Virus record (IMG/VR): IMGVR_UViG_3300034069_000443
Coordinates: 1-30,547 of that record
Strand: one strand, 5' to 3'
DNA: 30,547 nt
Origin: a virus
The position numbers and the translations under genes were made by a program. Positions 9,835 through 30,547 of the stretch are shown piece by piece. The stretch's first letter is position 1. The number at the start of each line of letters is the position of its first letter. The notes under the pieces were generated by a model, which saw nothing but the letters and a program-made list of their open reading frames with translations, searched no databases and was not told the origin of the DNA.

Positions 9835-10477
9835 ACTAGATAATACTATCGGTAAAGATTTTATGCGTCAAGAAAAGACGAATATCCTACGTTATTTACC
9901 AGTATTCTTAAACGAAAATTCCGATACATTCCGTTTAGTAGGCGATTCGCAATCAGCTGAGCATGACGAATTAAAAGAGTATCTTTTGGACGTATATAAG
10001 CAATTCTTCATATCAACGGCTACATGGGGTTTAACTCTTTGGGAAAACGATTTATTCATTCCGGTTAATGAATCAGATTCTGACGAAGTACGACGTCTTA
10101 GAATATGGCAGAAATTGCAATCTAAACAAACGTCGACTATTCAATTCTTAACAGGCCTGTTAAATAAATTTGTTAGTACTAACGACGGTACTATTACCGA
10201 ATTATATTCGGAATATAAGTTAAGATTCGAAGTGCAAGACGGTACTATCGATAATTGGACTGATTTATTAGCAGCTATTAACCAATGGAAGCCGGCGCAT
10301 TTAGGATACTTCTTTACTACTTATTTAAACCTCGGCGAAGAAGTATACTTTTCCGGCGTCGTATCCGAAGTCGAAGAAATCTTTATTCCGGCTGATACTA
10401 ATTATACGATTGAAACATCTAGTCCTAATACGGAATCTGAATATATTCCGAAACTATTAATTCATACTAAATTTTAA
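9827..10477 (+). CDS. baseplate/tail protein (XkdU / DUF2313, Mu gp48-like)
   Basis: Start moved to ATG 9827 (MARLDNTIGKDF...), overlapping the upstream stop by 8 nt. LRYLPVFL...FISTATWGLTLWENDL motif typical of the family. Confidence 0.65.
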   Translation: MARLDNTIGKDFMRQEKTNILRYLPVFLNENSDTFRLVGDSQSAEHDELKEYLLDVYKQFFISTATWGLTLWENDLFIPVNESDSDEVRRLRIWQKLQSKQTSTIQFLTGLLNKFVSTNDGTITELYSEYKLRFEVQDGTIDNWTDLLAAINQWKPAHLGYFFTTYLNLGEEVYFSGVVSEVEEIFIPADTNYTIETSSPNTESEYIPKLLIHTKF

Positions 10478-10495
10478 AATAAAGGAAATATATAT

Positions 10496-11947
10496 ATGCC
10501 TAACAAAACTGGCGACTTCGACGTACTGAAGTTAACGAATGCCGGCCGCGATATGTTAACGCAAGGCCGCGCCGGCCACGTATTAACATTCACTAAGATT
10601 ATAATCGGCGACGGTACAGCGACTGGCGCAGCTATCGATAGTTTAACAGCTATTAAATCTCCGAAGCTAACCCTTCCTATCGCTAAAAACGAAACAGTAC
10701 ACGCCGGCCAAATGCGACTACAATTTAGAGTAAGTAATAGCCTAGTTAATACTAGCTTCTACTTCCGCGAAATAGGTTTAATGGCTAAAATCGACGACGG
10801 CCAAGAAAAACTTTACGCATATACGACATGCGGCGATAAAGCTAAATTAGTTTACGATAAGACTTACCCTATTCAAGAAAAAATTATTAATATCGATACG
10901 GTTACGGATAATGCCGTTAATGTTAAGGTTATCCTCGACTTATCTATTATGTACGCAACGAAAAAAGATATCGTCGACATGATTAAACCTCATAAGGAAT
11001 TAGCGGAATTAGATCATCCTGATTCTAGCGTTACGACTCGTAAACTTAGAGATAAATCCGTTACTTTACCTAAATTAGCCGACGACGTTAATAACTTATT
11101 GCAGCGTACTTATGTTAAGAAAACCGGCGATACTATGACTGGCAATCTTAGCCTTAATAATTCAAGTATCGGCTTTAATAACGGAAATAATACTCACGAT
11201 ACAAAAATTAGAATTGCTTCTAATGGCAATTTTGATATTGGCGTAACGGAAGATTCTGCTAATAAAAATGCTACGACTCAATTATTATTACACAGTCAGA
11301 ATAAGCCTAAATGGTACAATTCCGCTAATGGCGGTAAAGTATTAGCTACTGAAGAATATGTTAATACCGAAACCGCTAAATACTTACCGTTAGCCGGCGG
11401 TACGATGAAGGGCGATATTACGTTTAAGCGTAACCAATCTTCTATTAAATTAGACGGCGGTACGAATAAAATACACTCTATCGACGTAGGCGGCACAAAC
11501 GGCGAAAATCTCGATATTGGTAACGCCAAACAAACATCAGAAGCTAACCTATGCTGTTATAATCGTCCAGGCTGGTATGGTAAAAATAAGACTAATGAAT
11601 TTCATAAATTCGCCTTAGTAGACGACATGAAAATTATAGGCGGAAAAGTTACCGACGGACAGACAATTCCAATCCCTAGCGGATATAGTAAAGACGAATG
11701 TACTGTATTGTTATCTTTATCTAAAAGTAACGCTGAAAATATCTATGTAGATATTAGAGAATCCGGTATCGCTAACTCCGTACAAGTAGAATGTTGGGCT
11801 GATAATAATTTAACAGCGCATGTAGGTATGTGGTGGAGAAATAATGAAGGTTATTCACATAGTGCATATGGCAATGGTGAAGGTAAAGGCGACACTTGGA
11901 TGCCTGGTGAAGCTACTTATATTTGCATTGCACTAAAGAGGGCGTAA
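10496..11947 (+). CDS. tail fibre protein
   Basis: N-terminus FDVLKLTNAGRDMLTQG..LTFTKIIIGDG resembles a tail-collar fibre N-domain. Repeated GDTMTGNL / GGTMKGDI fibre motifs. Lies after the baseplate genes. Confidence 0.8.
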   Translation: MPNKTGDFDVLKLTNAGRDMLTQGRAGHVLTFTKIIIGDGTATGAAIDSLTAIKSPKLTLPIAKNETVHAGQMRLQFRVSNSLVNTSFYFREIGLMAKIDDGQEKLYAYTTCGDKAKLVYDKTYPIQEKIINIDTVTDNAVNVKVILDLSIMYATKKDIVDMIKPHKELAELDHPDSSVTTRKLRDKSVTLPKLADDVNNLLQRTYVKKTGDTMTGNLSLNNSSIGFNNGNNTHDTKIRIASNGNFDIGVTEDSANKNATTQLLLHSQNKPKWYNSANGGKVLATEEYVNTETAKYLPLAGGTMKGDITFKRNQSSIKLDGGTNKIHSIDVGGTNGENLDIGNAKQTSEANLCCYNRPGWYGKNKTNEFHKFALVDDMKIIGGKVTDGQTIPIPSGYSKDECTVLLSLSKSNAENIYVDIRESGIANSVQVECWADNNLTAHVGMWWRNNEGYSHSAYGNGEGKGDTWMPGEATYICIALKRA

Positions 11948-11950
11948 CGT

Positions 11951-12274
11951 ATGGACTATATCAAGCGTCAATCTGAAATAATCCATATAGGTAACGACTG
12001 GAATCGAAGTTATACGATTCAGGGCGACAATATTGATTTATCTAATGCTAAAGCTGTATGTAAACTCCGTACTATTAATGACGAATTAATTTTAGAAGCC
12101 GATTGCGAAATTAAAGATAAATCTATTTACGTTACTATTCCGGCTGCTAAATCTTTAACTATACCTAAAACAATATTTAAAGGCTTCTACGACGTATTTA
12201 TAGTTAGTGATACATATAGCTATAAGTTAGTTATGGGTAGCGTTAAAATTATTCATGACGTATCTTTACATTAA
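11951..12274 (+). CDS. hypothetical tail-fibre-associated protein
   Basis: 107-aa ORF packed between two fibre genes. No motif recognised. Confidence 0.4.
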   Translation: MDYIKRQSEIIHIGNDWNRSYTIQGDNIDLSNAKAVCKLRTINDELILEADCEIKDKSIYVTIPAAKSLTIPKTIFKGFYDVFIVSDTYSYKLVMGSVKIIHDVSLH

Positions 12275-12294: not shown

Positions 12295-13410
12295 ATGAAT
12301 AAAGAAATTATCGTTAAAATTCCTGATAACATTAATGTTAATATCGGTATTCCTGGCCGTAAAGGTAACGACGGAAATAAAGGCGATAAAGGCGATCCAT
12401 TCCGCTATGAAGATTTCACAGCTGAGCAACTCGCAGCGCTTAAAGGCGAGAAGGGCGATAAAGGCGAAGACGGCGCTAAAGGTGAAAAAGGCGAAGACGG
12501 TAAACCTGGCGCGCCTGGTAAAGACGGTAAAGCCTTTACTTACGAAGACTTTACGCCGGATCAGTTAGCAGCTTTAAAAGGCGAAAAAGGTGATCCAGGT
12601 GAAAAGGGCGAAACTGGTGATATGCCTTCTATTCCTAATACTGTACATCTTTTAAGAAAAAATTATATTTATCTACCTGGCGAAGACTTAGATACTGTAT
12701 TAACTACAATATTAAATACCATAAATAAAAATACTACTTTTATGATTCCTTATGAAAGCGCTGAAGCGATGTATCCGTTTGAAGTAGATACATTCAACGA
12801 AGGCGATGAAAATATCACCGTACATGGCTATAATCATTGTAAAGTACAAGTCGGCGAAGAAGAAGCAGTCGAAATCTTAAATAATAAAGCTATCGTACCA
12901 GTACCAAAAAATACTGGCGATTTTATCAATGTTAAATACATTAATTACTTAGGTAGAGTAGTAGCTTCTAAAAACGTTGAAAAAGTTAAAGAAGACGATA
13001 CTCCGGCTGTAGTGTATCAAGAAGACAATCCTAACATGAAACTCAGCGTAAAAGGCACTAAAGCAGTACTTGAATTTATTCAAGGGGGGCGTAATTCATT
13101 TAGTAGTAGCACATTAAAGCCTTTACAAAACACAGTAAAACGCTTAATTATCGATTTAGCTAACGTCGATAGAATCAATGATTATGTATCCCTTCCGTTT
13201 GTACCTGAGAAAGTCGTGATTATTAATTATAAGGCTAATAACTTAAACTTATCCTTCCAGGGCGATTATTACGGTATGACTAAAATCGTATCTGAAAAGC
13301 CTATTCCATATCATACGTTAAACAGTAATGGCGAATACGAAGTATCCACTTTAAATGGTAAAAGCTTTATGTTTAGCGATTCCGCTATTTACATTGGAGA
13401 CGCCTTATAA
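12295..13410 (+). CDS. collagen-like repeat fibre protein
   Basis: Gly-X-Y runs (GRKGNDGNKGDKGDP; GEKGDKGEDGAKGEKGEDGKPGAPGKDGK; GEKGDPGEKGETGD) within 12355-12621, followed by a non-repetitive C-terminal domain. Confidence 0.8.
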   Translation: MNKEIIVKIPDNINVNIGIPGRKGNDGNKGDKGDPFRYEDFTAEQLAALKGEKGDKGEDGAKGEKGEDGKPGAPGKDGKAFTYEDFTPDQLAALKGEKGDPGEKGETGDMPSIPNTVHLLRKNYIYLPGEDLDTVLTTILNTINKNTTFMIPYESAEAMYPFEVDTFNEGDENITVHGYNHCKVQVGEEEAVEILNNKAIVPVPKNTGDFINVKYINYLGRVVASKNVEKVKEDDTPAVVYQEDNPNMKLSVKGTKAVLEFIQGGRNSFSSSTLKPLQNTVKRLIIDLANVDRINDYVSLPFVPEKVVIINYKANNLNLSFQGDYYGMTKIVSEKPIPYHTLNSNGEYEVSTLNGKSFMFSDSAIYIGDAL

Positions 13411-13414
13411 AATT

Positions 13415-13750
13415 ATGTATATATTAATCTCAGATACAAATATCGTAATCGGTATGAGTACTTATAAAGAAGCGCTACTTCCTGATCTAAAACCAGGATT
13501 TAGTATCGTTACAGAAAACGAATACAATTCATTATTTAACTTAATTGATAAAATAGCTGATACTGTTAAGAAAGATAAAGTACAGCCGAAGTTAGATAAT
13601 GAAGACGCTATTAATAGCGGCAGCGACGCCGAAGATACAGTCGAATTAAATCCTGAATATATATTAGAAGCGTTAGTTGACTTACAATCACAAATATTAG
13701 ATTTAGAAGGTGGTACTACACATGAAGAAATTGAAACCGTGGCTAATTAG
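13415..13750 (+). CDS. hypothetical protein (XkdW position)
   Basis: Start moved to ATG 13415 (MYILISDTN...) just after the upstream stop at 13408-13410. Assigned by synteny only. Confidence 0.45.
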   Translation: MYILISDTNIVIGMSTYKEALLPDLKPGFSIVTENEYNSLFNLIDKIADTVKKDKVQPKLDNEDAINSGSDAEDTVELNPEYILEALVDLQSQILDLEGGTTHEEIETVAN

Positions 13751-13886
13751 CGCATACTCTAAACTCGTTATTCTCGGTAAATATACGTTGGACGAAACAG
13801 TCGCTAACGACGAAATTAAGTTAGTACCTGAATCTTACCAATCCGCCGTATCCGAATGGTTAGTCAAACATTATAACAAAGGTTAA
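13722..13886 (+). CDS. small XkdX-like protein (below the ORF-track length cut-off)
   Basis: 54-aa ORF MKKLKPWLISAYSKLVILGKYTLDETVANDEIKLVPESYQSAVSEWLVKHYNKG. GAAGGTGG RBS 8 nt upstream. Fills the 13751-13888 gap at the XkdX position. Confidence 0.55.
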   Translation: MKKLKPWLISAYSKLVILGKYTLDETVANDEIKLVPESYQSAVSEWLVKHYNKG

Positions 13887-13888
13887 TA

Positions 13889-14146
13889 ATGGATAATATC
13901 AGCTTAATTTTAGATATCGTCAAGGATATTAGAAATACGATTCATGACTTTCAAGCGCAGCAGAATGCAATGAATTCGCGCGTTACTCAAATTGAATCTA
14001 CATTGAAAGATATGGATTCTAAAATTTCTAATCATCAAGCACAACTCGATAGTCTTTGCGATAAAGACAAAAAAATTCAAGGCGTCGCTATATTCTTCGG
14101 ATTCATGATTCCGATAGCTATCGCTATTTTAGGTATTATTTTTTAA
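13889..14146 (+). CDS. xhlA: XhlA-like lysis accessory membrane protein
   Basis: 85 aa: coiled-coil N-part (RVTQIESTLKDMDSKISNHQAQLDSL) plus a single C-terminal TM helix (VAIFFGFMIPIAIAILGIIF). Lies upstream of the holin and amidase as in PBSX. Confidence 0.65.
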   Translation: MDNISLILDIVKDIRNTIHDFQAQQNAMNSRVTQIESTLKDMDSKISNHQAQLDSLCDKDKKIQGVAIFFGFMIPIAIAILGIIF

Positions 14147-14171
14147 ATCGATATCTTTAAGGTAAAGCTAA

Positions 14172-14504
14172 ATGGATATTAAGAATAAAGCGATACAATC
14201 AATTAAAAGCGCCTATAAGAATATTCGCGTCAGTAGGGTAAAACCTACTGGCGTTATTCTTACGCGCTTGCTTATCCTGGTTATGATACTACCGATATTA
14301 TTAGTTATTATCCAGTACATTATGTCTTTTATATCCGGTTATGTTAGCGACGAAGCTAATAAAATAATTAACGTCGGAATTAACATAATCGATCATATTT
14401 TTATACCGTCAGTATTAACGGCGTTAGTCGGATTCTTAGGCTTATGGCTTGATAGTAATCATAACGGTATTCCGGATAAGTTAGAAGATAAGGAAGTTAA
14501 ATAA
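14172..14504 (+). CDS. holin
   Basis: 110 aa, two hydrophobic helices and a charged C-terminal tail (DKLEDKEVK). Stop overlaps the endolysin start (ATAATG). Confidence 0.65.
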   Translation: MDIKNKAIQSIKSAYKNIRVSRVKPTGVILTRLLILVMILPILLVIIQYIMSFISGYVSDEANKIINVGINIIDHIFIPSVLTALVGFLGLWLDSNHNGIPDKLEDKEVK

Positions 14505-15061
14505 TGAAGATATTTATTAATCCAGGCCACGATTTACAATATGATAGTGGCGCTGTTAACGATATATACGGTATTACTGAAGCTGAAATAGCTAAAACTA
14601 TCGGCGATAAAGTAGCCTTTTATTTAAATAATGTCGGCTATGCTACACAAGTTATGCAGTCAGATAATTTAAATTATGATTCCGATTATGCCGATAGGCC
14701 TTACCCTGTATGTGTAGCTGCTAACGACTGGAATTCTGATATATTTGTTAGTATCCATTGTAACGCAGCTAATACACAAGCTAAAGGTACGGAATGTTTA
14801 GTCTATAATTTAGGCGGATCATCTGAAATTTTAGCTAATTGCGTACAAAATCAGATAGTTAATTCTCTTAATACTATCGATAGAGGATTAAAAGTCCGTC
14901 CGGAATTAACTGTGTTAAAACGTACTCATATGCCGGCCGTATTAGTAGAAACTGCTTTTATCGATAACGATGAAGACGCGTTACTATTAATTAATAATGC
15001 TGACGATTTCGCTGCTGCTATAGCTAGAGGTATTACAGACTATGCTTCAGCTGTTAAATAA
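14504..15061 (+). CDS. N-acetylmuramoyl-L-alanine amidase endolysin (Amidase_3), catalytic domain only
   Basis: MKIFINPGHD..GAV, FVSIHCNA, GTE, MPAVLVETAFIDN motifs. 185 aa with no recognisable wall-binding domain. Confidence 0.85.
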   Translation: MKIFINPGHDLQYDSGAVNDIYGITEAEIAKTIGDKVAFYLNNVGYATQVMQSDNLNYDSDYADRPYPVCVAANDWNSDIFVSIHCNAANTQAKGTECLVYNLGGSSEILANCVQNQIVNSLNTIDRGLKVRPELTVLKRTHMPAVLVETAFIDNDEDALLLINNADDFAAAIARGITDYASAVK

Positions 15062-15605
15062 AAGAATTATAATCGCTGCCGGAATTCTTATCATTATTAG
15101 CTTATTAGTCGGATCAGGATATTATTTCTATCATAAAGGAATACAAGATTCTACGATTCCACTTCAGCCGATAGCTAAAGTCGATTTTAATTCCGTTAAA
15201 CAAGCGCAGCAATTATCTAAAAAATATACTTCAGATTCTGATACGAAAGAAGTAGTACATTATATAGAAAAAGCTAAGGAAAAACCGCCTACTTTTCAAT
15301 ATATAACGGCTTCGCAAGCAGAATCTGATAAAAAAGCTAATTATCTTTCCAGTAAAAATAAGGCAGATTATGTATTAAAGGAAACTGAATCCGATAATAA
15401 TATAATTAATAACAATTATTATGCTATTAAACAAGAAAAGAAAAATCGTATCGGTGGCGGTATAGCCGTCATTAATAACGATATTTACGGTACGATTCAT
15501 TATCAACGCGATCGGTTAAGAGTCGAAGCCTTTAAGAGTATAACTAATCCTAAAGGTAAGAAATTAGACGGCGCAGCAGTATCGTATGACTTTGTTAAGT
15601 TTTAA
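15042..15605 (+). CDS. N-terminally membrane-anchored protein at the end of the lysis cassette
   Basis: 187 aa, TM helix IIIAAGILIIISLLVGSGYYF near the N-terminus, hydrophilic remainder ending in ..SYDFVKF. Overlaps the amidase gene by 20 nt. Confidence 0.5.
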   Translation: MLQLLNKRIIIAAGILIIISLLVGSGYYFYHKGIQDSTIPLQPIAKVDFNSVKQAQQLSKKYTSDSDTKEVVHYIEKAKEKPPTFQYITASQAESDKKANYLSSKNKADYVLKETESDNNIINNNYYAIKQEKKNRIGGGIAVINNDIYGTIHYQRDRLRVEAFKSITNPKGKKLDGAAVSYDFVKF

Positions 15606-15674
15606 ATAACATAATAATTCATTCATCATCAGCCGCAGTATTTAATACTGTTGACTATATATTTCTTTAAGAAA

Positions 15675-15710
15675 AGCGACTAAGGATTAATTTTCCTAGT
15701 CGCTTTTTTT
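15675..15710. terminator. bidirectional intrinsic terminator closing the late operon
   Basis: GCGACTAAGGA / TCCTAGTCGC stem followed by T7 on the plus strand. On the minus strand the same stem is followed by TTTTCTT. Confidence 0.75.
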
Positions 15711-15740
15711 GTCTTTTCTTATACTAATTTAGGTAAAAGT

Positions 15741-16386
15741 ACTTTGGCCGTATTGACATCGACGCCTGAAAGGCGTATCAAACATAGGCACTAAGCAACG
15801 GCTTCGGCGCATAGTATCCCCAGTAAAAATTATTTAAATAAAAATTTATTTAACTTTACTGAGGAATACTATACATTATCAAACACAGTTTACTGAAGAA
15901 TCCGTATCCGTATGCCCTATTTATAGCCGGTATTCTACTACCGTATATATTGTTACGCGTCTTAATCCATGCCCTACGTATCGTATCATTACTGATACGT
16001 CTATATAATCCCGCCACTTTCGCAGCTGCTAGAATCGAAATCTAGCGATTAAACCTTACCCATTGTAGCTGATTTATCCGCTATTTCATCGCTAAGCGGA
16101 ATGGGCGTCGCTACATCTTCTACCCTTTAGGGGTTATATAGCTTGAAATAGGTACGCTGGTATAATCCCCGTGCATTTATTGCGGTGGCTGTACGAAACC
16201 CTAGGCGAAACTATTACAATCGCTTTCCTTTATATAGCGCTGGCAGCGCTTTATTTACTTAGTAAATAATTCCGGATCTGTTTTAAGCAGCTATCCGGCT
16301 AGCTGGCTGCATGATTCTATTTTTACCCTATGCAGCGGGGCAACAAAAAAAGCATAGCCCATAAGATATATTTTTAATATCTTAGC
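15741..16386. ncRNA. ORF-free, GC-elevated, hairpin-dense block; candidate large structured RNA (strand and ends unresolved)
   Basis: No ORF >=60 aa in six frames. Many short GC-rich helices. Candidate plus-strand promoters TTGACA-17-TATCAA (15753-15781) and TGgTATAAT (16158-16166). Confidence 0.25.
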
Positions 16387-16516
16387 TATGCTAAACAAGT
16401 ACCCTTTTTATAGAGTAAAAACAGTTTATATAGTTGCATTAACTACTGTTTATATGCTATAATAAATGTACAAACTAACAAGTTAAACAAGTGCTGTGGG
16501 GTACTTGTTTAGCATA
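16387..16516. repeat. 18-bp perfect inverted repeat flanking a 94-bp promoter-bearing spacer
   Basis: TATGCTAAACAAGTACCC (16387-16404) is the exact reverse complement of GGGTACTTGTTTAGCATA (16499-16516). Confidence 0.9.
16434..16463 (+). promoter_or_regulatory. sigma-70-type promoter with extended -10
   Basis: TTGCAT (16434-16439), 18-nt spacer, TGcTATAAT (16455-16463). Confidence 0.55.
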
Positions 16517-16560
16517 TGCCTTTCAATTCTACGTCAATAGAATCGATAGGCTTTTTTTTT
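16470..16560 (+). ncRNA. candidate ~90-nt small RNA
   Basis: Bounded by the promoter at 16434-16463 and a terminator at 16518-16560. No ORF. Internal 9-bp hairpin TAAACAAGT/ACTTGTTTA (16484-16511). Confidence 0.45.
16518..16560 (+). terminator. intrinsic terminator
   Basis: GCCTTTCAATTCTA / TAGAATCGATAGGC stem (2 mismatches) followed by T9 (16552-16560). Confidence 0.65.
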
Positions 16561-16766
16561 GCACTTTTTATTTATTATTGTGTAAAGATGTATCGTCTTA
16601 TACAAGATATTGAGTTACGAAAATCAATATCGTTATGTATATAATATCATTTCTATTTCATTTTGCCAATAAAATTATTTACGAAGCCTTTATCTAAGCC
16701 ATTAAATACACCCAATGGGCGTATAATTCAATAGTTATCTTTTATTTAAAAGATAAAACTATTAAG

Positions 16767-16798
16767 GAAAAAGCACCAGTATTTTATATGCTGGTGCT
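16767..16798 (-). terminator. intrinsic terminator (minus strand)
   Basis: AGCACCAG (16772-16779) / CTGGTGCT (16791-16798) stem, followed by TTTTT on the minus strand. Confidence 0.6.
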
Positions 16799-16825
16799 TA
16801 TCCTATATCTTTTTTGTACTCATCA

Positions 16826-16858
16826 TCATAATATATCTAATACTGGATAAAGTCAATT
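16826..16858 (-). promoter_or_regulatory. minus-strand promoter, repeat copy A
   Basis: Read on the minus strand: TTGACT (16851-16856) - 17 nt - TATTAT (16828-16833). About 33 bp are a direct repeat of 16964-16995. Confidence 0.5.
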
Positions 16859-16963
16859 ACGTTATGTATCTTTTATTTAATAGAATATATAGTAAGAGGT
16901 CAAGCCAGGATATTAAACCCTGGCTTGTAATCCCTTAATTTTATTACTATTTGTAACCCAACT

Positions 16964-16995
16964 TCATAATATATCTGATAATGGATTATGTCAAT
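16964..16995 (-). promoter_or_regulatory. minus-strand promoter, repeat copy B (overlaps the stop codon of the HTH gene)
   Basis: Read on the minus strand: TTGACA (16989-16994) - 17 nt - TATTAT (16966-16971). Confidence 0.5.
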
Positions 16996-17719
16996 CATCA
17001 TCTTTTAGCTTTTTCATAAACTTATCAATCTCTGATTTTGAAGGCGTTATATATATATTTTTATCTTCAAAATTATTCTTCTTATTCTTCCCTAGATTAT
17101 CAATACTATCGTCAAGCATTTCGGCGGCGTTTACAGCTTCTAATGCTTCGTCATTTTGATTGCCAAACAAATCTTTATACAGTAGATCCATGAAGTTATC
17201 GTTAGGATTTTCTTCTCCTAGTTTTTCGATTCTGTCTTTAAATCGTTTATCTTCTACTTCATTTACTAACCTAACATAGATACTTCTCATAACGTAACTA
17301 GGTGGAATTTCTAATCCCTTTTCTATGCGATCCAAAGTCCTTGCTGGCATGCGTAAGCTAATTGCTAATTCTTCTATAGTAAGACCTAACTCTTCACGCA
17401 AATCTATAATTTCAGGACTTCCCATTAATTGATATTCCAACTCTAAGACAACATCTAATACTAAGGCTTCGGTTAAACTATTATTACATTCATTTTCTAT
17501 TTTATAGAAAAGAATCCAAGTCTTATCATCAAAATCAAGATCAGGATCTTCCAAATCGTACTTTTGCATGACATCATGATTGTAAAACCATTGCGAGATA
17601 GTCCCGTCATAATTACGCGCTATCAAAATAACATCATCATCTTTTAAAATACGATTTGTATACTGTTTTAAAAGTTTAGTATATGCTGGATACGCTGTAC
17701 TTTCTATATTTAATTCCAT
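16991..17719 (-). CDS. XRE-type helix-turn-helix protein (candidate maintenance/lysogeny regulator)
   Basis: 242 aa. Central LREELGLTIEELAISLRMPARTLDRIEKGLEIPPSYV matches the XRE HTH pattern. Acidic C-terminus. Divergent from parA. Confidence 0.6.
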   Translation of the reverse strand: MELNIESTAYPAYTKLLKQYTNRILKDDDVILIARNYDGTISQWFYNHDVMQKYDLEDPDLDFDDKTWILFYKIENECNNSLTEALVLDVVLELEYQLMGSPEIIDLREELGLTIEELAISLRMPARTLDRIEKGLEIPPSYVMRSIYVRLVNEVEDKRFKDRIEKLGEENPNDNFMDLLYKDLFGNQNDEALEAVNAAEMLDDSIDNLGKNKKNNFEDKNIYITPSKSEIDKFMKKLKDDD

Positions 17720-17831
17720 AGCGCTAATCCCCTTTACTTAACACTAATAACTTATGTATATAACTATATTTTACATCAATTTCTATCAATAATAAACTTA
17801 TATATCTTTTATAAAAAAGATTCTTTATCTA

Positions 17832-17888: not shown

Positions 17889-18617
17889 ATGAGTATAGTC
17901 GCATTTATCAATCAAAAAGGCGGCGTCGGTAAATCATTACTAGCTTTTAATATTGGTATGTATTTATCATCTATTAAAAAAAAGAAAATACTGTTTGTTG
18001 ATTTAGACGCGCAAGCCACTTTAACGGATTTAACGATTCCGACGATAGACGTAGAATATACGTTATTTGATTTACTTAAAAGAAAGGGTACTGATCCGAC
18101 TAGTGCAATTATTAGTACGGATAACTTCGATATTATCCCTGGCGACATTCAAGTAGCTGGCTTATCGTCTAAGATTCAAAAGAATAGCTTATTAGATATC
18201 TTAAAAAGCATTAAGAAGAAGTATGATTATATTATCTTAGATTGCACGCCGTCTTTAGGCAGCATGAATATAGCAGCGCTATATGCAGCCGATACTATTA
18301 TTGGTATTGTGAAACCTGATATCGTATCGACTAGAGGATTACAATTACTATCGGATACGATTAGATCGGAAGTATCACAAAGAAGAAAAATAACCGCCGT
18401 TATCGTCAATCAATATAAGAAACGTAAGATATCTGAATTGACTGTACAACTCACGAAGCAAGATTATCCGTTATTGGATACCTTAGTACGCGATTCTTCG
18501 GCACTATCGGAAAGCGCTAGTATATCGCAATCAATCATAGAATATGGAAAAAATAATAACGGCTATAAGGACATCGAAGCCGTTACGGAAGAAATGTTAA
18601 GTAAGGGGATTTTATAA
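17889..18617 (+). CDS. parA: ParA/Soj-family partition ATPase
   Basis: Deviant Walker A INQKGGVGKS at the N-terminus, DLDAQ, IILDCTPSLG. 242 aa. Confidence 0.85.
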   Translation: MSIVAFINQKGGVGKSLLAFNIGMYLSSIKKKKILFVDLDAQATLTDLTIPTIDVEYTLFDLLKRKGTDPTSAIISTDNFDIIPGDIQVAGLSSKIQKNSLLDILKSIKKKYDYIILDCTPSLGSMNIAALYAADTIIGIVKPDIVSTRGLQLLSDTIRSEVSQRRKITAVIVNQYKKRKISELTVQLTKQDYPLLDTLVRDSSALSESASISQSIIEYGKNNNGYKDIEAVTEEMLSKGIL

Positions 18618-18618
18618 T

Positions 18619-19167
18619 ATGGCACGTATGGAATTAAATGAATATCCAAAATTAAAGCAAAAACAAAATAATAAGAAAAAGCCTAAGCGTAAAGCGATTA
18701 TCTTTAAGAAAAAGAATCCGAATCTAGGGCGTAAACCTATTTACGATAGCGCCGATGACGTTAAGAATGTAAATGGATTCTTCTACGTCGATGATTATGT
18801 TTATTTCTGTAACCTTGCCTATACGTTGCGTTACACTCAAATCATATTAGCTAATAAACTTTTTACTGATTTATTTAACTACTTACGAGATACTCATAAT
18901 ACTATCGATATTATGTTTTTAATTGGTATCGGTAAGGAAGGCAATAAAGATAATTGTGTAAAGAAAAATATTCGCCTATATAAAGATATCCATGAAGAAT
19001 ATGATACGTTACGCAAAACGTCGAAACGTACTATCGCCGATATCTTTAATTGCGCTATCGAATTATTTAGACACAATAATCCGGACTTCGAAATTATAGA
19101 AAATCCAAGAATCAATATTAACGATTTTAAGATTTTACCGATGAAAGGAAATTTCCGTACAAAATAA
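18619..19167 (+). CDS. putative centromere-binding partner of ParA (Lys-rich N-tail, RHH-like segments)
   Basis: Translationally coupled to parA (TAATATG). N-terminus KLKQKQNNKKKPKRK. Segment KKNIRLYKDIHEEYDTLRKTSKRTIADIFNCAIELF looks like strand-helix-helix. Confidence 0.45.
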   Translation: MARMELNEYPKLKQKQNNKKKPKRKAIIFKKKNPNLGRKPIYDSADDVKNVNGFFYVDDYVYFCNLAYTLRYTQIILANKLFTDLFNYLRDTHNTIDIMFLIGIGKEGNKDNCVKKNIRLYKDIHEEYDTLRKTSKRTIADIFNCAIELFRHNNPDFEIIENPRININDFKILPMKGNFRTK

Positions 19168-22394: not shown

Positions 22395-22711
22395 ATATAT
22401 TATACTATTAAATTGCATTTAATGAATAATACAAGTATCGCGCTACAAATCGGCACGATATTATTCGCATTAACTGGCATTATCTATATAAAATTCTCTA
22501 CGTTTACAGTATACCATACTTAGCAACTAAAAAAAAGATAAGTATTTGACTTTTTGATTAATTTACAGAAAAATAGCTATTCTTTTCTTTTAAGCCGGTA
22601 TAAAGTCAGGCTTAAAAGGAAAGCAGCTATTTTATGGGGTACGGATTTTAAATGTATTTGTAACTGGATCATCAACGTCATAGCCGCCGGAAAAATACTT
22701 CAGCTGCAAAA

Positions 22712-22860
22712 CTACATATCTTATATTAGTGTGGATTTGTAATAAATTTTCTAAAAAAGTCAGTATTTATCTATGTTTATCGGCTTTTAGGTGGGGTATG
22801 ATTTATACCCCTTTTACTATCGAAAAGGGTACGAATCGTACCCCTTACATTGTATACAAT
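22712..22860. repeat. 149-bp repeat, copy 1
   Basis: Aligns without length change to 22998-23146. Contains TGTGGATTT, hairpins GGGGTAT-gattt-ATACCCC and GGGTACG-aat-CGTACCC, and the palindrome ATTGTATACAAT. Confidence 0.9.
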
Positions 22861-22997
22861 TAAAATCTGATATCTAATCCGGCGGCTATCTTCTTCTTTT
22901 AAGCCTATGGATTAACCTCTACCAATAGTATTACCAGCTACGATATTATTATTGACTACGGCAGCTAGAATATTTTTTAACAGCCGTAATTACAAAT

Positions 22998-23146
22998 CTA
23001 CATATCTTATATTAGTGTGGATTTGTATAAAATTTTCAAACAAATGCAGTATTTATCTATGTTTATAGCGTTTTAGGTGGGGTACGAATCATACCCCTTT
23101 TGCTACCAAAAAGGGTATCATTTATACCCTTTACATTGTATACAAT
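22998..23146. repeat. 149-bp repeat, copy 2
   Basis: First 30 nt are identical to copy 1. Hairpins GGGGTA-cgaatca-TACCCC and AGGGTAT-cattt-ATACCCT. Same terminal palindrome. Confidence 0.9.
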
Positions 23147-29608: not shown

Positions 29609-30547
29609 ATTGACGAAATTAACGCCCGAAAAGTTGAAATCCGTAGTCTTATCGATTCCGCGGATATGGAAACTTTAAAAGCATTTCAAACTGAATTAGC
29701 TAGCCTCAACGAAGAAGCCGAAGAATTACGCGCCCGCGAAGAAGTAGCTAAACAATTAGAAACTAATAACAATCTAGGAAATTCTATTAATTTAAAAGGA
29801 CAACACGAAATGACAAATCCAACATTCGAATCTCAAGAATATCGTTCCGCTTTTATGGAATATGTAACTAAAGGTACTGAAATTCCTCAAGAATTTCGCG
29901 CAGCTGCTACATCTGTAACCGCAGATAACTACGCCGTAATCCCTACGACTGTACTTAATGAAATCGTAACTAAACTAGAAGCATACGGCGATATCTTGCC
30001 ACGCGTACGCCGTGTATCTTATCCCGCTGGTGTAACTGTACCGGCTTCCGCTACTAAATTCGAAGCAGTATGGCAAAATGAAAACGCTGTAGGCGATTCC
30101 CAAAAGATGACAACTGCTTCTATCTCCTTTACTGCTTATCAACTTCGTTGTAACGCTGGCGTATCCTTCCAAATGGACGTACGCAGCCTTGCAGCCTTCG
30201 AATCCGCATTAGTTAAAAATGTAGTCGACGCTATGGGTAAAGCACTAGAAAAAGCTATCGTATCCGGTACTGGCGTAGGTCAACCGACTGGCATTACAGC
30301 AGCTACACCAGCAGCAAAAGTAGACGCTACAGCTTGCGACTATGCGACTTTGGTAAAAGCAGTAAAAGCCGTACCGACTGCATATAAAAAAGATTTTGTA
30401 TTTATTATGAATGAAGGTACAGCCCTTAACTTCGCTACTATGGTAGACAAAAACGGACAACCTATTATTAACGCTGGTATCGTGCAAGCCCCTCAATATC
30501 GCTTCTTAGGTCATGACGTAGTATTAACAGACGCTTTACCAGACTTC
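29609..30547 (+). CDS. major capsid protein, N-terminal part (continues at 1-333; start uncertain)
   Basis: The frame is open from 29600 to the window end and continues into 1-333. N-terminal coiled-coil region (..LKAFQTELASLNEEAEELRAREEVAKQLE). First in-frame starts are TTG 29609, TTG 29633 and ATG 29666. The RBS-linked ATG 29599 is in another frame. Confidence 0.8.
   Translation, partial: MDEINARKVEIRSLIDSADMETLKAFQTELASLNEEAEELRAREEVAKQLETNNNLGNSINLKGQHEMTNPTFESQEYRSAFMEYVTKGTEIPQEFRAAATSVTADNYAVIPTTVLNEIVTKLEAYGDILPRVRRVSYPAGVTVPASATKFEAVWQNENAVGDSQKMTTASISFTAYQLRCNAGVSFQMDVRSLAAFESALVKNVVDAMGKALEKAIVSGTGVGQPTGITAATPAAKVDATACDYATLVKAVKAVPTAYKKDFVFIMNEGTALNFATMVDKNGQPIINAGIVQAPQYRFLGHDVVLTDALPDF
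30407..30547. repeat. 141-bp terminal overlap identical to 1-141 (circular closure)
   Basis: Base-for-base comparison of both ends. Confidence 0.95.

Follow-up and report, generated by a model that had tools for sequence, protein, structure and literature searches.

In plasmid pIP501, the antisense RNA RNAIII induces transcription attenuation in the ~300-nt leader of repR (PMC4981023). Here, we describe a locus of comparable layout in a virus, in which a large structured RNA, throat-1, stands where the rep open reading frame (ORF) would be expected. The locus lies in IMG/VR record IMGVR_UViG_3300034069_000443, all 30,547 nt of which were analyzed (hereafter, the window). The throat-1 family (RF03110) stems from the 2017 survey of Weinberg et al., where it goes undiscussed in the main text (PMC5737381). 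Our searches for "throat-1" and RF03110 found nothing further of relevance in the searchable literature. It appears to have been known solely as a metagenomic motif, which Rfam lists as a small RNA. The family, then, is not new; the new details are its genome context, its true extent and a predicted control circuit. As far as we could find, neither its genomic home, in ~30-kb myoviruses of the ParA type, nor its antisense/attenuator leader appears to have been described before. The best explanation of the locus as a whole, to which we assign a probability slightly above one half, is that it is a throat-1 gene switched by an antisense RNA, serving the maintenance of a plasmid prophage as a copy-number-gated RNA.

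A throat-1 RNA larger than its Rfam model

An earlier inspection of the DNA by eye, without database searches (the sequence-only reading), had singled out positions 15741–16386 as a hairpin-dense, GC-rich, ORF-free block and a candidate large structured RNA, either of the GOLLD or ROOL class or undescribed. This block encodes throat-1, an RNA that was already in the catalogue, and is read from the minus strand. The Rfam scan suggested at the time returns throat-1 as the single match in the whole window (16250..15918, minus strand, 361.6 bits, E 8e-105). This match is far above the gathering score of 124.4, covers model positions 1–334 of 334, and contains all helices of the model, which covary. 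An undescribed RNA is thereby set aside, as is a GOLLD (RF01998) or ROOL (RF03087) identity, these models having no match at the gathering score in the window and none at E ≤ 10 in 15600–17050. Across the latter interval, the permissive scan (E ≤ 10) added only microRNA-precursor noise on two long hairpins, and left the plasmid counter-transcript and RNAI/CopA families unmatched. There are no tRNAs in the window.

The ORF-free gap is real but larger than the ~650 bp first estimated, extending over 1385 bp (15606–16990, no ORF of at least 60 amino acids). Likewise, the block is indeed structured but its limits were drawn too narrowly, as the RNA and its control region span ~16670 to 15670. The reported rise in G+C content is seen (0.40–0.415 at 15800–16400, versus 0.27–0.35 in the flanks). 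Also present is the bidirectional intrinsic terminator reported after the lysis cassette (15669–15710, both strands), an inverted repeat with arms at 15669–15682 and 15697–15710, flanked by A and T runs. It closes both the RNA unit, on the minus strand, and the late/lysis operon, on the plus strand. Relatives also have a terminator at this place, of two or three unrelated sequence types.

Homologous regions were aligned from -300 to +480 around the invariant GGTAGAAGATGT, giving 22 distinct sequences. All helices of the core (15918–16250, minus strand) are kept with compensatory changes; they are 80–100% paired, and most show 2–7 compensatory pairs. When the Rfam helices are taken together with the new helices described below (101 pairs), standard pairs make up 95.4% of 2197 pair cells, as compared to just 31–43% when the partners are slid by 1–3 columns. 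Compensatory change is evident in 54 of the 101 pairs, the outcome of a covariation check that the sequence-only reading had also proposed. The MAFFT alignment is wrong at two elements, core helix P1 and hairpin X4; these counts exclude P1, and X4 scores low. G-U cells (164) far outnumber A-C cells (20), which establishes that the RNA is read from the minus strand. Neither strand has an ORF of at least 15 amino acids with a stop column common to at least 60% of the sequences, and the longest ORFs vary in position and strand from relative to relative. With no conserved ORF, and with a terminator and convergent genes downstream, the locus has the properties of a noncoding, stand-alone gene. The transcript beyond the attenuator (16344–15711) folds with a z-score of -3.6. 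These data bear out the idea of a large structured noncoding phage RNA, through both the Rfam match and the abundant compensatory changes in homologues. Certain long-range helices suggested by RNAalifold (A2 columns 41–47/698–704 and 500–507/688–696) were rejected, being invariant and without covariation; one also clashes with a covarying Rfam hairpin.

Nearly all of the helices picked out by eye belong to conserved structure. Those at 15977–16000, 16028–16046 and 16077–16100 are part of the Rfam model and covary (helices 12, 10 and 9 of the pair counts); GCTGCAT/ATGCAGC (16306–16336) is a covarying hairpin, termed E1; ACGCC/GGCGT (15762–15776) is hairpin X4, maintained with differing sequences among relatives; and the bulged stem at 16352–16391 is a minus-strand intrinsic terminator, followed by U7. 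The pairing of CCGGAT with ATCCGG (16272–16298) is real, but it forms a pseudoknot rather than a simple hairpin. A helix at GC(TTCG)GC (15801–15808) could not be confirmed. Both of the plus-strand promoters proposed earlier were abandoned: TTGACA-17-TATCAA (15753–15781) has a -10 box without T at position 6 in every variant and a spacer that is itself a conserved hairpin, and TGgTATAAT (16158–16166) lies, unconserved, inside a variable helix arm of the core.

The conserved, covarying RNA exceeds the Rfam model, comprising a 5′ domain, the 333-nt core and a 3′ domain of ~200 nt. The 5′ domain (16272–16336, minus strand) consists of hairpins E1 and E2 and the pseudoknot. E1 (16306–16336) is 99% paired and has 2 compensatory pairs (variants GCTGCAT/ATGCAGC, GCTGTAT/ATACAGT and GCTATAT/ATATAGC). 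E2 (16288–16305) is also 99% paired, with compensatory change in 4 of its 6 pairs. In the pseudoknot, the loop of E2 (16294–16298) pairs with 16272–16276, and 4 of the 5 pairs are compensatory (variants CCGGA/TCCGG, CTGCT/AGTAG, CTACT/AGTAG and CTATA/TATAG; in the distant members L052 and L065, CTGTA/TACAG and CTGCT/AGCAG, respectively). The 3′ domain (15711–15917, minus strand) is a block conserved in all loci, with strongly conserved unpaired motifs (TACGGAT and AGCCGTTGCTTAGTGCCTA). It contains X4; hairpin X2 (15809–15874; 16 bp, AT-rich variable loop, 96% paired, 3 compensatory pairs), whose G-U pairs are valid solely on the minus strand; and a candidate hairpin near the invariant AGTACT (~15735–15750), the register of which differs by lineage. 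Both domains persist in L052 and L065 despite protein identities of no more than 39–63%. Many loops of the RNA are invariant as well, among them GGUAGAAGAUGU, GGGUAAGGUUUAAUCGC and GUAGGGCAUGGAUU. Beyond the attenuator, the RNA is predicted to be about 630–670 nt long, nearly twice the catalogued 334 nt. The conserved structure continues ~85 nt upstream and ~200 nt downstream of the Rfam model, which suggests that this model is due for extension.

A predicted antisense-controlled leader

The only promoter conserved across the family, P3, lies on the minus strand ~380 nt upstream of the core (16669–16641). This predicted sense promoter is made up of TTGGCA (16669–16664), a 17-nt spacer and TG-a-TATTAT (16649–16641), and thus matches at 10 of 12 positions, with TG; it is conserved in all loci and directly follows an upstream terminator in most. 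The leader would extend from a predicted start at ~16634 down to 16345. It opens with two hairpins on the minus strand, H1 (~16596–16624) and H2 (~16574–16595), both of which covary. Next come an invariant GTGC-A9 and hairpin H3 (16518–16551), which on the plus strand has the form of a textbook intrinsic terminator with T9. Beyond H3 are segment a (16499–16516), the invariant ATTATAGC, segment c (16387–16404), and a terminator with U7. The leader helices are 96.2% paired and include 10 compensatory pairs, and the leader motif is found in exactly the 10 viral contigs that bear throat-1.

Within this leader, a putative antisense RNA gene is located on the plus strand (16434–16560), with a -35 element TTGCAT (16434–16439) and an extended -10 element TGCTATAAT (16455–16463). 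The predicted transcript, ~16470–16560 (~91 nt), would consist of a 12-nt 5′ tail, stem-loop 1, a terminator hairpin (16518–16551) and T9 (16552–16560). A promoter of the form TTGNAT-17/18-TGnTATAAT is found in 19 of 19 loci, and in all of these the predicted antisense RNA is 89–92 nt long and has two hairpins (dG -26 to -32 kcal/mol). Its terminator hairpin, helix 3 of the leader, covaries.

Segments a and c are perfect inverted repeats of each other over 18 nt, so that 16499–16516 can pair with 16387–16404 in a putative antiterminator (16387–16516, minus strand). The central 15 bp of this a:c helix are 98.1% paired in 18 distinct sequences, versus 25–39% when slid. The helix overlaps the five base pairs nearest the U tract in the predicted attenuator (16345–16392, minus strand), an intrinsic terminator whose hairpin (16351–16392) is 99% paired and is followed by a U7 tract (16351–16345). 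When the free leader is folded, a:c is part of the minimum-free-energy structure and the base of the terminator is fully unpaired in 17 of 19 loci. Masking the part covered by the antisense RNA yields the terminator in full at all 19 loci. These folds suggest how the switch may work. A transcript from P3 would pass through a leader in which the 18-nt antiterminator helix competes with the intrinsic terminator, and a constitutive antisense RNA of ~90 nt would be made inside the same leader. Binding of this RNA, which spans the antiterminator's upstream arm, should allow the terminator to form. As its dosage would follow gene copy number, throat-1 would be read through often when copies are few and seldom when they are many. 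The output of throat-1 would in this way be coupled to copy number, akin to that of the replication genes of pIP501 and pT181.

An internal promoter candidate, TTGCCC-18-TAGAAT (16343–16314), was rejected as the conserved promoter; it lies within the loop of the covarying hairpin E1 and is absent from L052 and L065. As the sole candidate of its kind is missing in these distant members, read-through from the leader appears to be the conserved route of expression.

How closely does this arrangement resemble known plasmid systems? Like those of pIP501/pAMbeta1 and pT181, the leader begins with a sense promoter followed by ~300 nt (PMC4981023, PMC3753616). As in pIP501 and pT181, a constitutive antisense RNA with two stem-loops arises, here by prediction, from inside the leader, and an antiterminator and a terminator are mutually exclusive, in a replicon that would here, too, be plasmid-like (PMC4981023, PMC3753616). 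The predicted antisense promoter, stem-loops and antisense terminator, together with the exclusive folds, are thus all in place. The gene behind the attenuator is the throat-1 RNA, with no ORF, instead of a rep ORF. Nor is there any sequence similarity to these plasmids or a match to an Rfam counter-transcript family. The locus also recalls ColE1, where a long structured sense RNA, RNA II, is met over its 5′ part by an antisense RNA of ~100 nt, RNA I; in both cases the module has no dedicated Rep gene, and the logic would be one of copy-number control. ColE1, however, works by refolding RNA II, whereas the layout in the window is one for termination; RNA II lacks a strongly conserved core of tertiary type, and the phage has a primase of its own. 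Points in favor of a ColE1-like replicon are circumstantial: the par-linked module is devoid of a rep gene, and the window has neither iterons nor DnaA boxes.

Farther upstream on the minus strand is an accessory region (16994–16766) present in a subset of relatives only. It comprises two near-duplicate strong promoters, P1 (TTGACA-17-TATTAT, 16994–16966) and P2 (TTGACT-17-TATTAT, 16856–16828), and, after P2, a terminator at ~16797–16766, which suggests a transcript of ~60 nt.

Relatives, genome and lifestyle

Scans for conserved motifs detected throat-1 in 11 viral contigs of IMG/VR and in 19 contigs from metagenomes; ten of the viral loci were confirmed by Rfam, with scores of 250–366 bits. 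The parent contigs are mostly 27–32 kb, with two near 40 kb. No match was found in 185,579 reference genomes by two pattern scans, or by blastn of 15600–17000 against 50,697 GenBank phages. Relatives of the window phage, gathered via the primase and the last lysis protein, are of two kinds, a ParA type and an integrase type. In phages of the ParA type, the unit lies between the par and lysis genes, convergent with the latter, and four lineages are represented: that of the window; L048/L049 (contigs of 23.5 and 12.4 kb, primase 70% identical to that of the window, throat-1 370.7 bits); L052/L053 (contig of 30.2 kb, lysis protein 62% and primase 41% identical, 331 bits); and L065 (contig of 27.7 kb, primase 39% identical), a divergent member scoring 153.9 bits. 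L052 and L065 keep the promoter, the antisense -10 box, the attenuator, E1, E2, the pseudoknot, X2 and the 3′ motif, with new compensatory variants. Between the window and L052, the core is 79% identical and the neighboring genes 47–73%. In L005 (4051–6010; same contig as L031/L041), the leader and the first ~90 nt of throat-1 are duplicated, and the second, divergent 5′ part is joined to a full core, giving ~2 kb of ORF-free DNA with no helix-turn-helix (HTH) gene. This arrangement looks like a recombination scar.

Relatives of the integrase type gave no Rfam match to throat-1 in the sequence read (21.6 kb of L045, 15 kb of L046). Matches were also lacking in L063, L058, L054 and L059, and a profile of the whole unit (nhmmer) found none in L045, L063, L066, L067 or L068–L070. 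The primase of L045–47 is 52% identical to that of the window, and the prophage sits at a tRNA gene, within a bacterial contig of 175 kb. L045 (13546–15079) and L063 (6930–8393) are sisters that share the early operon or the lysis genes and carry a tyrosine integrase instead of parAB. In L063, the integrase and a CI-like HTH gene come directly after the lysis cassette, and DNA similarity to the window ends exactly at 15605, the position at which the lysis cassette of the window ends. In seven more contigs, the end lies no farther than 430 nt from the lysis gene, which is what a prophage end would lead one to expect.

The same slot is of interest in more distant elements. L067, which encodes a resolvase, ParA and a primase 34% identical to that of the window, has a 1.03-kb ORF-free gap there (13577–14605), with no throat-1 and no Rfam or nhmmer match. 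Its sequence is unrelated, yet the layout is the same: a sense promoter, an antisense promoter that matches at 12 of 12 positions and has a terminator of its own, a 20-nt stretch with a long-range complement, and an attenuator, after which ~680 nt fold with a z-score of -3.5. This ORF-free sequence may be an undescribed RNA. In L069, a BREX-carrying plasmid with ParA and a distant primase homologue (31% identical), the par-adjacent slot (9909–12087) holds a classical replicon, with six iterons (CGACCTAAAAGTTCA), three to four DnaA boxes and a Rep3 gene.

The window itself begins and ends with an exact 141-nt direct repeat (positions 1–141 equal 30407–30547); this terminal overlap implies a complete genome of 30,406 bp, circular or terminally redundant. 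It encodes the gene set of a small myovirus (sheath, baseplate, tail fibre, portal, protease, TerS/TerL, HNH and methyltransferase) and a minus-strand early operon with a sigma-region-4-like protein and a 530-amino-acid RepB-primase-like protein. parA and a small partner gene occupy 17889–19167, and a gene for an XRE-type HTH protein lies between parA and the RNA unit (16991–17719, minus strand). Not all relatives have this last gene: L026, L005 and L048 are without it, L052 has a 116-amino-acid ORF in its place, and the length of the gene product varies within its cluster (226–257 amino acids). No integrase is encoded in the complete genome. Relatives of the window proteins were seen in hundreds of metagenomic sequences, none of them on a contig longer than ~31 kb and none from an isolate genome. 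Because the relatives are confined to such contigs and none occurs in an isolate genome, the virus fits the description of a phage-plasmid, a phage gene set being combined with ParA, a RepB-primase-like protein and the absence of integrase; the plasmid state is predicted from these genes. GC skew follows the direction of transcription and gives no information on the origin.

Several other features of the genome deserve mention. A palindrome, TATCTTTTAT..AAAAGATA, occurs three times (16736–16753, 16867–16884 and 17803–17820), once in the parA promoter region; the copies may be operators or parS sites. A direct repeat of 154 nt, with 86% identity between its copies (22707–22860 and 22993–23146), is found in an ORF-poor stretch between divergent early/late promoters and the HNH/terminase genes, and could be a packaging site or origin. 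The tail-fibre gene (12295–13410) contains collagen-like repeats with a 9-nt period (GGNGANAAA, 12373–12606). Clues to the host are faint: the endolysin has one domain, Amidase_3, with phages of diderm hosts among its closest relatives; TerL resembles that of Bacillota phages; and the nearest plasmid primase (25% identity) is in Selenomonas.

Possible roles of the RNA

The unit travels with par and is missing from integrase-bearing relatives; for this reason it most likely serves the extrachromosomal, plasmid-prophage state, a view based on gene neighborhood. In such a scenario, the most probable role of throat-1 would be that of an RNA limiting the rate of maintenance or replication. To our knowledge, the gene behind the attenuator limits the rate of replication in all replicons in which antisense attenuation has been studied well. 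Given this, and given that the lifestyle-specific module has no rep gene, we tentatively rank a maintenance or replication role first among the possible functions, at somewhat less than even odds. A true RNA-based replicon accounts for the lesser share of this and is, taken singly, unlikely. If the whole 1-kb unit were an RNA-based plasmid replicon or maintenance element, allowing persistence with neither an integrase nor a dedicated Rep, which we likewise consider rather doubtful, throat-1 might act as a pre-primer or as a recruiter of host replication enzymes, and the antisense RNA as the copy-number sensor.

A number of considerations weigh against these ideas. Promoters, antisense RNA and attenuation are all predicted at the level of sequence. 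The observed pairing values were reached by 0 of 500 shuffles, a statistic that overstates independence because the sequences are related and mosaic. The a:c helix is nearly invariant, with 1 compensatory pair, in 2 sequences, and the support for an antiterminator comes from conservation and thermodynamics, not covariation. The absence of the unit from L045–47 applies to the sequence read, outside of which lies the lysis-proximal end of the prophage. In L068, a ParA-type relative of the integrase phage, the unit was not seen in the 3.1 kb available beyond parA, the contig stopping before the lysis genes. The functional assignment itself is inferred from neighborhood association in a few lineages and from analogy. 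Moreover, the phage has its own primase, and so may not need a second replicon. Finally, the invariant loops suggest tertiary structure or a bound partner, and are unaccounted for by a simple model of primer or regulator. Indeed, none of the maintenance, accessory-RNA and immunity models yet explains the conserved loops.

An alternative that we rank second, and regard as possible though doubtful, is that throat-1 is a trans-acting "ornate" RNA akin to ROOL and GOLLD, carried as an accessory moron at the end of the late operon and unrelated to replication or partition. Its target would be the host or competitors, its mode of action for example that of a scaffold, decoy or anti-defense RNA, and the attenuator would only tune its dosage. 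The large, multi-helix, pseudoknotted fold with its many invariant unpaired nucleotides speaks for such a role, as do the unit's own promoter and terminator, its site directly after the lysis cassette, the usual place for accessory genes in temperate phages, and the unrelated ORF-free sequence in the L067 slot, which is what exchangeable cargo would show. ROOL and GOLLD are likewise large, elaborate RNAs of unknown function, often borne by phages or prophages (PMC5737381). Yet their models are unmatched even at E ≤ 10, their size differs, the throat-1 unit has no neighboring tRNAs, and its specific link to phages of the par type, together with its absence from the sequence read of the integrase type, would be unexpected for generic cargo. 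Antisense-driven attenuation, too, is best known from the control of plasmid copy number and transfer (PMC4981023, PMC3181467). It is also conceivable, though improbable and ranked third, that the locus is an RNA-based immunity system or lysis-lysogeny switch like P4 CI RNA, P1 c4 and N15 CA RNA. The phage-plasmids P1, P4 and N15 use RNA immunity factors that work through pairing and termination, and in these extrachromosomal prophages RNA–RNA pairing controls elongation or translation. By analogy, the resident antisense RNA would terminate the sense transcripts of resident and superinfecting genomes, and throat-1 would be the controlled effector, acting for instance as antirepressor RNA or by repressing early genes. 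L026, L005 and L048 have no HTH repressor gene in the module and only the RNA unit, and the integrase-type relatives instead carry a CI-like HTH gene beside the integrase; both observations would suit an immunity role. Known immunity RNAs, however, are short (70–200 nt) and simple and act on protein-coding operons, unlike an RNA of more than 600 nt that is pseudoknotted and conserved in its loops; none showed homology to the locus (Rfam, E ≤ 10). The XRE-type HTH gene of the window could itself be the repressor, and complementarity to early or late leaders was neither searched for nor found.

Two further explanations carry little weight. Could the block be a DNA-level structure, that is, single-strand initiation sites or an origin for the RepB′-like primase, or a packaging site? 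RSF1010 RepB′ recognizes DNA hairpins, the phage does encode a RepB-primase-like protein, and the block adjoins the par genes, where plasmid L069 has its iteron origin. We nonetheless find this very improbable, in view of the 330-nt multi-helix pseudoknotted fold, the strand-specific excess of G-U over A-C, the bracketing by promoter and terminator, the lack of iterons and DnaA boxes, and the integrase-type relatives of the same primase clade that go without the block in the sequence read. Least credible of all is a protein-coding origin of the block, whether as a decayed gene, an alternative raised with the original observation, or as a type I toxin-antitoxin locus, with a structured toxin mRNA and an antisense RNA. 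The sense/antisense pair and the setting of plasmid stabilization recall hok/sok and the pAD1 par locus. Against this, no relative has an intact ORF at this position, no small ORF is conserved on either strand, and the longest ORFs differ in place and strand among relatives, as described above.

Until now, throat-1 has been an orphan of the 2017 surveys, a motif and a name without organism, context or function. The window supplies a complete genome, a strand, probable ends, an RNA of nearly doubled size and a control circuit that can be tested. It also brings out a comparative contrast, in that the unit is present in partition-type phages and not seen in their integrase-type sisters. If a role in maintenance or replication is correct, throat-1 would be one of the rare large ornate RNAs of bacteria with an assigned biological role. 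And if the unit is in fact a replicon, this would be the first defined biological role for an orphan large ornate phage RNA, and the unit would represent a new type of replicon, joining ColE1-like logic with attenuation like that of pT181.

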